DNA of 64,000 nt from Escherichia coli (GTDB taxonomy: Bacteria > Pseudomonadota > Gammaproteobacteria > Enterobacterales > Enterobacteriaceae): assembly GCF_965641715.1 (NCBI RefSeq), contig NZ_OZ282453.1; one strand, 5' to 3'. Each line of letters begins with the position of its first letter. Positions within the stretch are counted from its first letter, which is position 1. Positions 45,301 to 51,300 of this stretch are shown here, in pieces. Position numbers: made by a program.

Positions 45301-48300
45301 ATTTCTGCAAGGCCGGTAACCTGCGGATGGTCCCGCCAGGCGAGCATCTGTTCAAGGGTAAAACTGGCACCGTTAACATCGCAGCCTTCCAGAGCGGGCA
45401 CGCAAGAGCTGACCTGTAAGTACTGGTTTTGCCTTGCCTGTTTGGCACAGCGGGCAAACCAGGCGAATCCGGCTTCGCCCATCACGTTGACGATTTCATG
45501 AGGGTCGCAAATAACGGTCGTCAGGCCGCGCGGCAGAGTAGCGGTTTCAAAGGTGACCGGCGTCATCATGCTGGATTCAATATGCAGGTGAGCATCAATA
45601 AACCCTGGCACTGCCGTTGCGCCGCGGGCATCAATCCGCTGCAAAGCCGGAGCATCAGCGTATTCTGCGCCAACACCGGCAATGTAACGTCCTTTAATCA
45701 CAATTGGGCCGGAAATTTCTCCGCCATTGATCAGGTCGAGAATAGATACATTATCAATAATATAATCGGCAACAGCGTCGCCACGGGAAACGGCTAACAA
45801 TTCCTGGTATTCAGCCCGGCTAATGTGATGAAATTTATGGTTAATAGAATTATTCATATTTTTCTCATTTTGATTTTATCAATTTGATTATTATTTATCA
45901 TAAAGAAACGTCGCGAGATTATTAAAGAATATCCATTAATGTGCAATTGAAATGTGATAATTATCACTGAACCGTTGTTGTCATTTGTTTTACAAAAGCA
46001 AGGGATTAAATCTCCTCCAATGGACAAAAAAATGAATAATGACAATACCGATTACGTGAGTAATGAATCAGGGACGCTTTCGCGATTATTTAAACTACCT
46101 CAGCATGGGACCACCGTCCGCACAGAATTGATTGCGGGGATGACCACTTTTTTAACCATGGTGTACATCGTTTTTGTGAACCCGCAAATCCTCGGCGCGG
46201 CACAAATGGACCCGAAAGTGGTGTTTGTTACCACCTGTTTGATTGCCGGTATCGGCAGTATTGCGATGGGGATATTTGCTAACTTACCCGTGGCGCTGGC
46301 TCCGGCAATGGGGCTGAACGCCTTCTTTGCCTTCGTGGTCGTGGGGGCGATGGGGATCTCATGGCAGACCGGGATGGGCGCGATATTCTGGGGTGCAATT
46401 GGGCTATTTTTGCTCACGCTGTTTCGTATCCGGTACTGGATGATCTCCAACATTCCATTAAGTTTACGTATTGGTATCACCAGTGGAATCGGATTATTTA
46501 TTGCCTTAATGGGATTAAAAAACACTGGCGTTATTGTCGCCAATAAAGACACCCTGGTGATGATTGGCGATTTAAGCTCTCACGGCGTGTTGTTAGGTAT
46601 ATTAGGTTTTTTTATTATAACCGTATTGTCATCACGTCATTTTCATGCCGCGGTGCTGGTTTCCATCGTCGTCACTTCCTGCTGCGGATTATTTTTCGGT
46701 GATGTTCATTTTAGCGGCGTCTATTCCATTCCGCCTGATATTAGCGGCGTCATTGGTGAAGTAGATTTGAGCGGCGCGTTAACACTTGAACTCGCCGGTA
46801 TCATTTTCTCCTTTATGCTGATCAACCTATTTGATTCATCAGGAACATTAATTGGTGTAACTGATAAAGCTGGCTTAATAGATAGTAATGGTAAATTCCC
46901 CAATATGAATAAGGCGCTGTATGTTGATAGCGTCAGTTCGGTGGCGGGTGCGTTTATCGGCACCTCGTCTGTTACTGCCTATATTGAAAGTACTTCTGGT
47001 GTGGCAGTCGGTGGCCGCACGGGGCTGACTGCGGTTGTGGTTGGCGTTATGTTCCTGTTGGTTATGTTCTTCTCACCGCTGGTGGCGATGGTTCCTCCTT
47101 ACGCAACCGCTGGAGCGTTAATCTTTGTTGGCGTGCTGATGACTTCGAGCCTGGCGCGCGTTAACTGGGATGATTTTACCGAATCGGTGCCTGCGTTTAT
47201 TACCACGGTGATGATGCCCTTTACTTTCTCGATCACCGAAGGGATTGCACTCGGCTTTATGTCGTACTGCATCATGAAATTGTGCACCGGGCGCTGGCGC
47301 GATCTGAACCTGTGTGTGGTGGTGGTCGCAGCTCTATTTGCACTCAAGATTATTCTGGTGGATTAGTAACTGGCGAGGGTTTCCAGATATCATGAGTTCT
47401 GATTACGCAGGAGAACTCATGATCTGGATAATGCTCGCCACGCTGGCGGTAGTGTTTGTGGTTGGTTTTCGGGTGCTGACATCCGGGGCCAGAAAAGCGA
47501 TTCGCCGTCTCAGCGATCGGCTGAATATCGATGTCGTACCCGTGGAGTCGATGGTCGATCAAATGGGAAAGTCAGCCGGTGACGAATTTTTACGTTATTT
47601 GCATCGTCCGGATGAGTCGCACCTGCAAAACGCCGCGCAGGTGTTGCTCATCTGGCAAATTGTCATTGTCGATGGTAGCGAACAGAACCTGCTGCAATGG
47701 CATCGGATTTTACAAAAAGCCCGCCTTGCCGCGCCGATTACCGATGCTCAGGTCAGGCTGGCGCTGGGTTTTCTGCGCGAAACTGAACCTGAAATGCAGG
47801 ATATTAATGCTTTTCAGATGCGCTATAACGCATTCTTTCAGCCTGCCGAGGGCGTTCACTGGCTGCATTAAAACCGCTTCGTCTTATCAGCCTACAGACC
47901 GCGCCTGACCTGTCGAGTGGATAAGGCGTTCACGCCGCGTCCGGTATCGGAACTGACAGTAGGTGAACGCATTATCTACGTTCTATTTACAGCAGCACAT
48001 CCAGCCCGTGTTTTTGCACAATGCTGAGCAGTTTTAATGAAATGCCATTGGGGCGTTTAGCGCCACTTTCCCATTTTTGTACAGTTGAAACGCTGGTATT
48101 GAGATAGTGAGCGAAGACGGGCTGACTCACTTTTAATTTTTCCCGCAGTGCTTTTATCTCAACAGGTTGTAAGTCTTGCACGTTGGTCAGGCAGGCTTTG
48201 TCAAAAGTACGCATTGTTTCGGCAGAAATAGCATCGACGCTGGACAATCCAGCCGCTGCGCTGTGAATAGCCTCAAATGCAGGACTTTTAAATTTAGTTT

Positions 48301-51300
48301 TTGCAGTCATAGCAGATCTCTGTCAGTTCTTTAGTGTTAATCATTGCTGTTAGCTGGGCTTTCGTCAGGAAGGCATAATGCTTTGCAAGTTCACGAAACC
48401 CAGCCAGTTCCTGACTATTGATGTTCGACATATCCTGTTTTGCATATAAAAACGTGTAAAACCAATTGCTTCCCCCTTTTGCCAGAATAATTGCACGCTC
48501 ACGATTTTGGTGAAGGCGCTTTTTAAAAACGCCACCACCAAGTGCATCAGCTTTACCTTGCTCCGTTTCTAAAATGGCCCGGCACAACTCTTCATCTGTT
48601 ATTGCATGAGACCTGGCTTCCCTTGCAAACCATTTGGTTTTAAACACGCGCATATCGTTGAGGTCCTGTTATTAAAGTATATCACCAAGTGCAATACTTT
48701 ATCCCTTATTCCCAACCCAATCGCGAAAATGCATATCAGCTTGCCCTATGATTTTTGTTTCTTCGAGCAGCCTCGAACTTTTCCCACAACACCGTAAAAG
48801 TTGCAAAAACGTTAAATGCGTCACACATTTCAATGTTAAAGTGGTCGGCTTTTCCCCTGAAACATGCCACGGGTAACACCATGAGTGAATTTATTGCCGA
48901 AAACCGCGGCGCGGATGCCATCACCCGACCGAACTGGTCAGCCGTTTTCTCGGTGGCGTTTTGTGTCGCCTGTCTGATTATCGTTGAGTTTTTGCCCGTC
49001 AGTTTGTTGACGCCAATGGCCCAGGATTTAGGCATTTCGGAAGGGGTTGCCGGGCAATCGGTGACCGTGACCGCCTTTGTGGCAATGTTTGCCAGTTTGT
49101 TTATTACCCAGACAATTCAGGCCACTGACCGCCGCTACGTTGTTATTTTATTTGCCGTTTTGCTGACGCTCTCCTGTTTGCTGGTTTCCTTTGCTAACTC
49201 ATTCAGTTTGCTTTTAATTGGTCGTGCCTGTCTGGGGCTGGCGCTGGGCGGGTTCTGGGCGATGTCGGCGTCGCTGACCATGCGTCTGGTACCGCCGCGT
49301 ACGGTGCCGAAGGCGCTGTCGGTGATCTTCGGCGCGGTTTCTATTGCGCTGGTGATTGCCGCACCGTTGGGCAGTTTTTTAGGCGAGCTTATCGGTTGGC
49401 GCAATGTCTTTAATGCGGCGGCGGTGATGGGCGTGCTGTGTATTTTCTGGATTATCAAATCATTGCCTTCGCTGCCAGGCGAACCCTCGCATCAGAAACA
49501 AAATACTTTCCGCTTATTACAACGTCCGGGTGTGATGGCAGGGATGATCGCCATCTTCATGTCTTTCGCCGGGCAGTTTGCTTTCTTCACGTATATTCGC
49601 CCGGTGTACATGAACCTGGCGGGATTCGGTGTGGATGGCTTAACGCTGGTGCTGTTAAGTTTTGGTATCGCCAGCTTTATCGGTACGTCGCTTTCGTCGT
49701 TCATTCTTAAACGTTCGGTAAAACTGGCCTTAGCAGGCGCGCCGTTAATACTGGCTGTGAGTGCGTTGGTGCTGACGTTGTGGGGAAGCGATAAAATCGT
49801 TGCTACCGGCGTGGCGATTATCTGGGGGCTAACTTTTGCATTGGTTCCTGTCGGCTGGTCAACGTGGATCACCCGCTCGCTGGCCGATCAGGCAGAAAAA
49901 GCCGGGTCTATTCAGGTGGCGGTTATTCAGCTTGCTAATACCTGTGGTGCGGCAATCGGTGGTTATGCGCTGGATAATATTGGTCTGACTTCGCCGTTGA
50001 TGTTGTCCGGCACATTGATGTTGCTGACGGCGTTATTGGTCACCGCAAAGGTGAAAATGAAGTAACGTATTTACAGGAGGGGTTACTGCTCTGGCGGGAA
50101 AGCTCTCCTGTTCTACCTCCTGATAACCCTTGATCAGGTATTGTTCTTATCTTGTTGTTATTTCTATTCTTCCACCTGAATTCATCATTTGCTAATCATG
50201 AATCATCATTTTCCCTCATGTTAAAGAAAGGTCATTTAATCTGAACGCATAGCGACAGGGATGACAAATGGCAGGGAAAGCGCATGGGAATGGCGATCGT
50301 CGGGGCGATAACACCATATGTGGATTGGGGGATCGTTTACGTCGTCTGACCGCCGGTATTTGCCTGATAACACAAACTATATTCCCTGTTATGGCCGCTG
50401 CCCCTACGCATATTAACCATGCGCATTCGGATACTGCCACGTCCCTGATCCTGCCGAACGTTAAAACTATTCCATATACCCTGGGGGCATTGGAATCGCC
50501 ATCAACGGTCGCGGCACGCTTTGGTATCACCGTTGATGAGTTACGTCGCCTGAACCAGTTTCGTACCTTTGCGCGGGGCTTTGACAATGTGCGTCAGGGC
50601 GATGAAATAGATGTGCCCCTCATTAACAGTAATAGCCCTGAAGCGCGCAACCTGAAAGCAATGCAGATGGAGCGCGACGGCAAAGATCCGCAAATGCAGG
50701 TCGCGGAAATGGCGCAGCAAAGCGGAACACTTTTAGCTCGCGATATGGACAGCGAACAGGCGGCGAGTATGGCGCGTGGCTGGGTGGCTTCTTCTGCATC
50801 TGCGCAGGCAACGGACTGGCTCAGTCGTTGGGGAACTGCCCGGGTATCTCTTGGTGTGGATGAAGATTTCAGCCTTAAAAGCTCTTCATTCGAATTTCTC
50901 CATCCCTGGTACGAAACGCCGGATAACCTGGTCTTCAGCCAGCACACACTTCATCGTACGGATGATCGCACTCAAACCAACCACGGTATCGGCTGGCGTT
51001 ATTTCACCCCGAGCTGGATGTCTGGCGTCAATATGTTTATCGATCATGACCTGACCCGCTATCACACCCGAACCGGGATAGGCGTTGAATACTGGCGCGA
51101 TTACCTGAAACTGAGCGGCAACGGTTATCTGCGCCTAAGTAACTGGCGTAGTGCACCGGAACTCGACCATGACTATGAAGCACGTCCGGCGAACGGGTGG
51201 GATCTTCGCGCGGAAGGCTGGTTGCCGGCCTGGCCGCAGCTGGGCGGCAAGTTGGTCTATGAACAATATTATGGCGATGAAGTGGCGCTGTTTGGTAAAG

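Follow-up and report, generated by a model that had tools for sequence, protein, structure and literature searches.

What occupies the gap between yicN and the nucleoside exporter gene nepI in this Escherichia coli genome, and how long has it been there? Within the analyzed window, a 64,000-nt stretch of contig NZ_OZ282453.1, the gap holds two minus-strand open reading frames, both starting with ATG, which a preliminary description had read as a HigB2/RelE-like toxin followed by a helix-turn-helix (HTH) antitoxin, inserted at this site and probably accessory. ORF listing and inspection of the sequence bore out the proposed arrangement of two overlapping genes, toxin first, that share 17 bp (Table 1), and both protein lengths and the overlap are identical in all seven other loci examined. 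This is the generic layout of type II toxin-antitoxin (TA) modules, with small, adjacent, co-oriented, overlapping genes and a protein antitoxin; it is conserved in all 8 loci, and the overlap suggests translational coupling. We conclude that the nepI-yicN pair is an ordinary two-gene TA module of the HigB2/HigA2 family, with Coxiella burnetii ToxP/AntitoxP as its closest tested relative. When the literature was searched for the gene neighbors and for the protein accessions, no experiments on the nepI-yicN module came up, and it appears to be an uncharacterized E. coli TA module. The new biology is small, as its family, gene architecture and likely mechanism have been described before and RefSeq already labels the toxin gene as a RelE/ParE toxin.

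Table 1. Features of the nepI-yicN module and its surroundings (window coordinates).
Feature	Coordinates	Strand	Details and basis
yicN (DUF1198), convergent neighbor, outside the module	47419..47871	+	RefSeq annotation
REP element	47919..47942	-	Differs from GGATGCGGCGTGAACGCCTTATCC at one position; chance expectation 0 matches
Variable segment	47947..48786		840 bp; 41-bp filler in module-negative E. coli; pairwise BLAST against K-12
Antitoxin/repressor gene	47987..48310	-	107 aa; HigA2/AntitoxP type
Overlap of toxin 3' end and antitoxin 5' end	48294..48310	-	17 bp
Toxin gene	48294..48653	-	119 aa; HigB2/ToxP family, Pfam PF06296
Inverted repeat TAAAGTATTGCAC-TTG-GTGATATACTTTA, putative operator for an antitoxin dimer	48673..48701		Repeat search
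Putative extended -10, TGATATACT (TGnTATACT)	48676..48684	-	Within the operator's right arm; read by eye
nepI, divergent neighbor, outside the module	48881..50065	+	RefSeq annotation of identical regions

The upstream protein is small and basic (13.7 kDa, pI 9.2), as had been described, and matches PF06296 ('RelE'; HigB-2 family toxins) with an E-value of 9.8e-42 (142 bits; residues 1-113 on model positions 1-120). This match, hundreds of homologs and a dN/dS of about 0.1 exclude chance ORFs. Vibrio cholerae HigB2 (VcHigB2), placed in the same Pfam family (PMC11980606), hits the same model with an E-value of 3.3e-8, and the predicted structure of the toxin has the RelE/BECR fold and matches that of VcHigB2. 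Because direct sequence comparison fails, with phmmer against solved structures yielding only noise, a 22-sequence toxin profile retrieving nothing from the PDB at E up to 10, and hhalign against VcHigB2 returning a probability of 3% and a mis-registered alignment, the two toxins were linked through Pfam, the predicted fold and a MAFFT alignment in which intermediate sequences serve as the bridge. The toxin had no matches in NCBIfam and one weak family of unknown function in PHROGs, and the HMMs for HigB of Rts1 and of E. coli K-12 (PF05015, PF09907) did not match it, PF06296 being the only family reported at E up to 10. These systems, K-12 HigB/HigA (ygjN/ygjM) and Rts1 HigB, together with Salmonella SehA/SehB, share with the module a toxin-first order, a RelE-superfamily fold and an XRE-type antitoxin. 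SehA/SehB was considered as the Salmonella orthologue and rejected, since SehA residue numbering does not fit the Salmonella protein P0037 and SehA is described as 40% identical to E. coli HigB. At the 5' end of the gene, a Shine-Dalgarno AGGA (48664..48667, minus strand) lies 10 nt before ATG 48653; its position favors the 119-aa start over the RefSeq GTG at 48647 and suggests that the RefSeq 117-aa start is two codons too short.

In the bridged alignment, VcHigB2 K49, R51, R64, Y82 and K84 align to toxin K44, R46, R53, Y70 and K72, so that all five active-site residues are shared at about 20% overall identity. The K, R, R and K columns are invariant across 19 sequences including VcHigB2 and ToxP, and the tyrosine position is Y or F family-wide. 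Mutagenesis has established that R51, R64, Y82 and K84 matter in VcHigB2 (PMC5416850), and the five aligned residues are the predicted catalytic residues of the E. coli toxin. ToxP has the same K/R/R/Y/K motif and is 31% identical to the toxin (E 1e-18) over its full length, including a C-terminal extension. This extension, residues ~97-116 of the toxin, comprises a helix and a strand, is absent from VcHigB2, the only solved relative, and contains a glutamate, E112, that 90% or more of the sequences share in alignments A2 and A4. Both relatives have a longer basic loop than the E. coli toxin; in ToxP this is the beta2-beta3 loop (GKGKRGG), which in the toxin is 6 residues shorter.

The extension bears on an alternative in which a RelE-fold toxin arrests growth by binding or inhibiting some other factor, perhaps through these very residues. 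SehA inhibits RNase III, and ParE poisons gyrase. SehA was predicted to be a HigB-type RNase and has no RNase activity, with an extra C-terminal helix being decisive (PMC12817084); the toxin here and ToxP likewise carry an extension that VcHigB2 lacks. However, SehA belongs to a different family, and the residues on which its function depends, Y53 among them, have no counterparts in P0037, the Salmonella orthologue. All five VcHigB2 catalytic or substrate residues are kept in the E. coli toxin, four of them invariant across the family. Such retention argues for catalysis, as there would otherwise be no reason for these residues to persist. ToxP, moreover, is toxic and inhibits cell-free translation, and ToxP and AntitoxP bind each other and their promoter (PMC10098735); mRNA cleavage by ToxP is not demonstrated in the available passages of the Coxiella report. 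A target other than translated mRNA is on balance rather improbable.

The downstream protein ends in an XRE-type HTH, as the preliminary description had proposed: its C-terminal part matches HTH_3 (residues 52-96, E 1.2e-7), VcHigA2 chain 5jaa_A (residues 46-102, E 8e-10) and the C-terminal region of MqsA (E 9.5e-6). The similarity to AntitoxP runs along the full length (55% identity over residues 5-106, E 2e-36) and takes in the N-terminal segment, which aligns from residue 5 with F7, K8, E13, H16, G21 and L22 invariant, and which does not align to the disordered region of VcHigA2. This conserved segment presumably neutralizes the toxin. A single-sequence AF2 model of the antitoxin was weak (pLDDT 70) and was used for helix positions only. 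Membership in NadS (NCBIfam NF041265), a family that the preliminary description had raised, did not hold up (41.3 bits against a curated cutoff of 60), and the MqsA family (TIGR03830 / PF15731) was rejected because the antitoxin scored 40.4 bits where 61.8 are required; the match was confined to the HTH half of the model (positions 48-119) and left the N-terminal CxxC zinc domain unmatched. The likeness of both families to the antitoxin is that of the C-terminal HTH region. Together, the PF06296 assignment, the VcHigB2 fold match, the active-site residues and the VcHigA2 and AntitoxP matches uphold the original reading of a HigB2/RelE-like toxin paired with an HTH antitoxin.

Upstream of the toxin gene, a TAGCAC-N3-GTGCTA inverted repeat is conserved across 8 loci, including three whose genomic surroundings are unrelated, with an invariant CAC-N3-GTG core and half-sites that are degenerate in Escherichia relative to other genera; the Citrobacter repeat is perfect. 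The putative extended -10 is largely conserved in the same alignment, and the -35 is weak. An automated scan of 47850-48950 for sigma-70 promoter and terminator consensus sequences found nothing, and the promoter call is therefore a manual one. The conserved repeat over the -10 is likely an operator: the footprinted VcHigA2 operator is a single inverted repeat that also spans the -10 (PMC11006873), and the two share this architecture. Their sequences differ (TGTACGC-N5-GCGTACA in V. cholerae), and the antitoxin does not retain the residues through which HigA2 contacts bases. V. cholerae HigB2/HigA2 (PDB 5JA8, 5JAA, 8A0X; PMC5416850, PMC11006873) is likewise toxin-first, but is a superintegron cassette, in contrast to the fixed chromosomal site of the present module. 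ToxP/AntitoxP of Coxiella plasmid QpH1 (CBUA0028/CBUA0027) is a toxin-first bicistron with a 4-bp rather than 17-bp overlap; it is plasmid-borne and needed for plasmid retention (PMC10098735), whereas the E. coli module is chromosomal and syntenic.

At the other end of the module, pattern search confirmed the adjoining REP element, which lies 44 bp past the stop codon of the antitoxin gene, directly at the variable segment's left edge, and belongs to a REP pair at ~47872-47946 that alignment showed to be shared with K-12. Rfam returned a sub-threshold match to the REP-derived naRNA4 at 47915-47980, the other sub-threshold match being a spurious miRNA. The predicted RNA fold of this 3' REP region is no more stable than shuffled sequences (z -0.83), and we therefore claim no special terminator structure.

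Is the module a newcomer to this site? The preliminary description was right that K-12 lacks it: MG1655 carries the 41-bp filler instead. Among 5426 complete E. coli genomes, 1716 (32%), including O157:H7, carry the module, always single-copy, chromosomal and full-length; presence is all-or-none, with no partial or intermediate deletion states across the set. A recently acquired mobile cassette, confined to some E. coli lineages, would fit this absence from K-12 and 68% of genomes, the lower GC content of the variable segment (43.7%, with flanking DNA at about 50%), the REP element at one boundary, and the occurrence of the family on plasmids in other taxa and beside an integrase in Morganella. 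Yet E. ruysiae, Citrobacter koseri, Klebsiella oxytoca and Salmonella enterica all have the module next to nepI, the first three with yicN on its other side, and its protein identities follow the species tree. Synonymous divergence from E. ruysiae is comparable for the module (dS 0.24-0.26), yicN (0.30) and nepI (0.42). No direct repeats, integrase or IS were found at the boundaries of the variable segment, a single 1002-bp allele is common to every evenly sampled genome that lacks the module, and the filler matches the toxin gene at 16/19 positions (p about 0.013), like a deletion scar. Recent acquisition is thus very unlikely. Because relatives hold the module at the same site and its divergence tracks that of the flanks, it is ancestral at nepI-yicN and the K-12 state a deletion allele; on these genomic comparisons, enteric bacteria have long carried the module in the nepI-yicN gap, with losses in K-12 and in about two thirds of E. 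coli. Of the earlier 'inserted, probably accessory', the insertion falls and accessory status stands only insofar as the module persists in 32% of complete E. coli genomes.

A further reading is that of a decayed, non-functional remnant or an orphan regulator. Some assemblies do contain frameshifted or truncated variants (P0006, P0094, P0113, P0115), and the operator is degenerate in Escherichia. Against this, both ORFs are intact here, purifying selection acts on both genes (0.12-0.13 for dN/dS in comparison with E. ruysiae), the toxin retains its predicted catalytic residues and all 1716 positive genomes carry a full-length module, which makes decay hardly credible.

The stable setting of the module also weighs on its role. 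RelE/ParE-superfamily toxins are increasingly tied to defense (PMC11980606), and the antitoxin matches the phage protein family phrog_2104 (E 1.5e-26), as might be expected if the main role were abortive-infection phage defense, with the same toxin mechanism triggered by phage infection rather than stress. The single 'phage' record matched is, however, a Salmonella contig; PADLOC-DB gave no matches to the toxin and only weak, generic HTH matches to the antitoxin, and the module lies outside any defense island, amid housekeeping-type genes, and is stably inherited. We consider a primarily defensive role unlikely.

We therefore favor, with a probability of about 0.8, a functional chromosomal type II TA operon of the HigBA2 / ToxP-AntitoxP family that would work as follows. 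A single promoter with the extended -10 would produce a bicistronic mRNA, toxin first. Free toxin, of RelE-type fold, would most likely bind the ribosomal A site and cleave translated mRNA, stopping protein synthesis; K72 and R46 would serve as the acid/base pair while R53, K44 and Y70 hold the substrate, as in VcHigB2. The antitoxin, a putative dimeric XRE HTH protein, would wrap and block the toxin with its conserved N-terminal segment and, through its C-terminal domain, bind the inverted repeat over the -10 and autorepress the operon, so that antitoxin loss would free the toxin. As a best explanation this is established for family, fold, conservation of residues and operator, purifying selection, and distribution by population and synteny; the toxicity, RNase activity, ribosome dependence, neutralization and operator binding of the module we infer.

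Enterobacteriaceae modules of this kind and ToxP might further constitute a functionally distinct branch of 'long-form' HigB2 toxins, marked by the C-terminal helix-strand extension, a Glu112 that 90% or more of the aligned sequences share and a shortened basic loop, in which the extension alters target or regulation and the module has taken on a domesticated role; we regard this as decidedly doubtful. If it were true, the extension could act by auto-inhibition, for example, or through a non-ribosomal partner, comparable to SehA and RNase III, and the unusually stable vertical inheritance beside the nucleoside exporter nepI in four genera would reflect domestication for a role in the host, not selfish addiction. 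TA modules are usually pictured as mobile, and vertical inheritance at nepI-yicN runs counter to that picture: several genera of Enterobacteriaceae have had the module passed down at a single place in the chromosome, and one shared deletion allele segregates in E. coli. With a conserved candidate operator now defined, and roughly one in three complete E. coli genomes carrying the module, K-12 offers a natural null background.

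The minus strand between yicN and nepI carries two small ORFs that overlap by 17 bp, with the toxin-like gene upstream (ORF listing and sequence), the arrangement given in the preliminary description. The upstream gene encodes, as had been noted, a small, basic protein (13.7 kDa, pI 9.2) that spans the whole of Pfam model PF06296 ('RelE', HigB-2 family; E 9.8e-42); searches of NCBIfam and PADLOC with this toxin gave no match. The structurally and biochemically characterised PF06296 member is Vibrio cholerae HigB2 (VcHigB2; PMC5416850), whose membership is also stated in the literature (PMC11980606) and which matches the model weakly (E 3.3e-8, positions 8-96). 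Direct comparison of the toxin with VcHigB2 (sequence identical to PDB 5JA9 chain C) failed with phmmer, a profile search of PDB and hhalign, so the two were linked through an AlphaFold2 model and a bridged alignment. The model, for which 46 sequences were aligned, has high confidence (pLDDT 90, pTM 0.83). In a MAFFT alignment of 19 sequences, including VcHigB2 and Coxiella burnetii ToxP and bridged by long-loop family members, toxin residues K44, R46, R53 and K72 correspond to VcHigB2 K49, R51, R64 and K84 and are invariant (19/19), and Y70 lies opposite Y82. Substituting these VcHigB2 residues lowers activity 170- to 3000-fold (PMC5416850), and K49 is listed among such residues elsewhere (PMC10098735).

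Coordinates of the toxin-antitoxin genes, candidate operator and neighbouring features in the window
Feature	Position	Strand	Details
Second REP copy	6118..6141	-	perfect consensus; pattern search, window
REP element	47919..47942	-	one mismatch from consensus; 0 expected by chance
Antitoxin ORF	47987..48310	-	107 aa
Toxin ORF	48294..48653	-	119 aa, ATG 48653
Inverted repeat TAAAGTATTGCAC-TTG-GTGATATACTTTA, putative operator	48673-48701	.	repeat search
nepI	48881..50065	+	394 aa
Inverse autotransporter-like ORF	50268..60803	+	3511 aa, directly after nepI

In RefSeq/PGAP the toxin begins at GTG 48647 (117 aa). The upstream ATG is better supported, because the N-terminus MR[VI]FKT is conserved, Salmonella and Klebsiella have Ile at codon 3, the Pfam alignment begins at residue 1, and AGGA sits 10 nt before the ATG.

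The downstream protein carries an HTH_3 domain (residues 52-96), and its best solved relative is V. cholerae HigA2 (VcHigA2; E 8e-10, residues 46-102); together with the PF06296 match, these bear out the earlier call of a HigB2/RelE-like toxin with a helix-turn-helix antitoxin. It also resembles the C-terminal half of MqsA. Its scores fall under the curated cutoffs of both NadS and MqsA, so it was placed in neither family, and NadS, proposed earlier as a model to search, is set aside. At pI 9.6 the protein is basic, departing from the usual acidic type of antitoxin. Between genera it is more conserved than the toxin (79-84% versus 70-72% identity), the reverse of the pattern expected for toxin-antitoxin pairs. 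Elements of this sort are well understood, and the pair already carries a computational annotation (PGAP: 'type II toxin-antitoxin system RelE/ParE family toxin' and 'helix-turn-helix domain-containing protein'); no experimental study of this particular locus turned up in the literature searched.

Judged by sequence, the closest tested relative and best experimental analogue is ToxP/AntitoxP of C. burnetii plasmid QpH1, both proteins of which align full length with the window pair (31% identity, E 1e-18 for ToxP and the toxin; 55%, E 2e-36 for the antitoxins). ToxP is toxic and, in cell-free assays, inhibits translation; direct binding of AntitoxP neutralises it, and the promoter is bound by AntitoxP and by the ToxP/AntitoxP complex (PMC10098735). 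Plasmids of rhizobia, Pseudomonas, Legionella and Coxiella carry relatives at 50-58% identity.

We propose that the two genes form a bicistronic, self-repressed operon, in which free toxin would bind the ribosomal A site and cleave mRNA as RelE and HigB2 do, its sequestration would fall to the antitoxin N-terminus, and an HTH dimer would sit on the operator over the -10 element. The analysis establishes the family, the fold, the conserved motif and operator, the selection and the distribution, and each biochemical step is inferred. We put the probability that the toxin is an mRNA-cleaving RNase of the RelE/HigB2 type at about 0.8. Cleavage of mRNA is not universal among RelE-fold toxins: ParE, which has this fold, poisons gyrase. 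SehA of Salmonella, which is HigB-like but belongs to another family than the window toxin, inhibits RNase III via an extra C-terminal helix (PMC12817084), and the window toxin too has a C-terminal extension of uncharacterised kind: a helix-strand element at about residues 97-116 (model and alignment), present in ToxP and absent from VcHigB2, whose residue E112 is kept in at least 90% of aligned sequences. Because the full catalytic set is retained and ToxP blocks translation, RNase activity is nevertheless much the likelier, and an action other than mRNA cleavage improbable.

The candidate operator occupies the stretch 20-48 bp 5' of the toxin ATG, and its right arm holds TGATATACT, which reads as an extended -10 element; a consensus promoter scan called no promoter in this region. 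We aligned the 90 bp 5' of the toxin at eight loci (E. coli, E. ruysiae, C. koseri, S. enterica, K. oxytoca, Dickeya, Yersinia and Morganella; the genomic context is unrelated in the last three). The sole conserved block besides the start codon region is a palindrome with consensus TAGCAC-N3-GTGCTA and an invariant CAC-N3-GTG core, and this conservation argues for the putative promoter and operator. Citrobacter, Klebsiella, Dickeya, Yersinia and Morganella carry the perfect palindrome; E. coli and E. ruysiae have two degenerate half-sites (TTGCAC/TCGCAC and GTGATA), although their antitoxins keep the HTH segment NTSVSTVQKWESG, the presumed recognition helix, unchanged. Seven of the eight enterobacterial loci agree in this part of the HTH, and Yersinia departs only at the residue next to NTSVSTVQKWESG. 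The VcHigA2 operator is likewise single and, by footprinting, extends over the -10 (PMC11006873); the operator sequence and the base-contact residues of the antitoxin differ from those of VcHigA2.

Homology to K-12 MG1655 ends at 47946 and restarts at 48787, with 41 bp in K-12 in place of 840 bp, confirming that K-12 lacks the module. Of 5426 complete E. coli genomes, 1716 carry the 840-bp segment, O157:H7 among them, always full length, single copy and chromosomal, and at 97-100% identity in all carriers but strain HS-02 (NZ_CP172818.1; 79% DNA identity, toxin alone annotated), whose allele may have been imported from another species. Among 20 evenly sampled module-negative genomes, 19 have the K-12-like 1002-bp span; the other, strain GF130, matches query bases 1-508 only.

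The preliminary description took the module to be inserted and probably accessory, a view that the junction in other genera overturns in favour of an ancestral module lost in K-12. E. ruysiae, C. koseri and K. oxytoca have the same 119-aa/107-aa pair, 17-bp overlap included, between nepI (MFS) and yicN (DUF1198), and the Salmonella module adjoins nepI. Divergence is comparable to that of the flanks: toxin and antitoxin are 93/93% identical to their E. ruysiae counterparts, 72/84% to those of C. koseri and 70/79% to those of Salmonella, with NepI at 95%, 89% and 87%, and dS against E. ruysiae is 0.24-0.26 for the pair, 0.30 for yicN and 0.42 for nepI. Both genes are under purifying selection (dN/dS 0.12-0.13). 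The Dickeya, Yersinia and Morganella modules occupy other sites, the Morganella copy adjoining an integrase. These comparisons indicate that the module is not an Escherichia-specific insertion; they are best read as gain before the Escherichia/Citrobacter/Klebsiella/Salmonella split, vertical inheritance and a single deletion in one E. coli lineage, the deletion allele now being the majority in E. coli. The K-12 filler (2048..2088 of the K-12 record) has a 16/19 co-oriented match to the toxin gene interior (window 48551-48569; p ~0.013 by shuffling), which is only suggestive of a deletion scar.

The left boundary of the 840-bp segment abuts the canonical REP element, which sits 44 bp past the antitoxin stop codon; the preliminary description had likewise noted a REP element directly beside the module. 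NepI has 394 aa here and 396 aa in K-12, and its C-terminal end differs. The 3511-aa ORF contains about 20 near-identical repeats of about 100 aa and is named 'air: inverse autotransporter adhesin EaeX/Air' in the near-identical strain A16 record; in K-12 this position is taken by yicS and nlpA.
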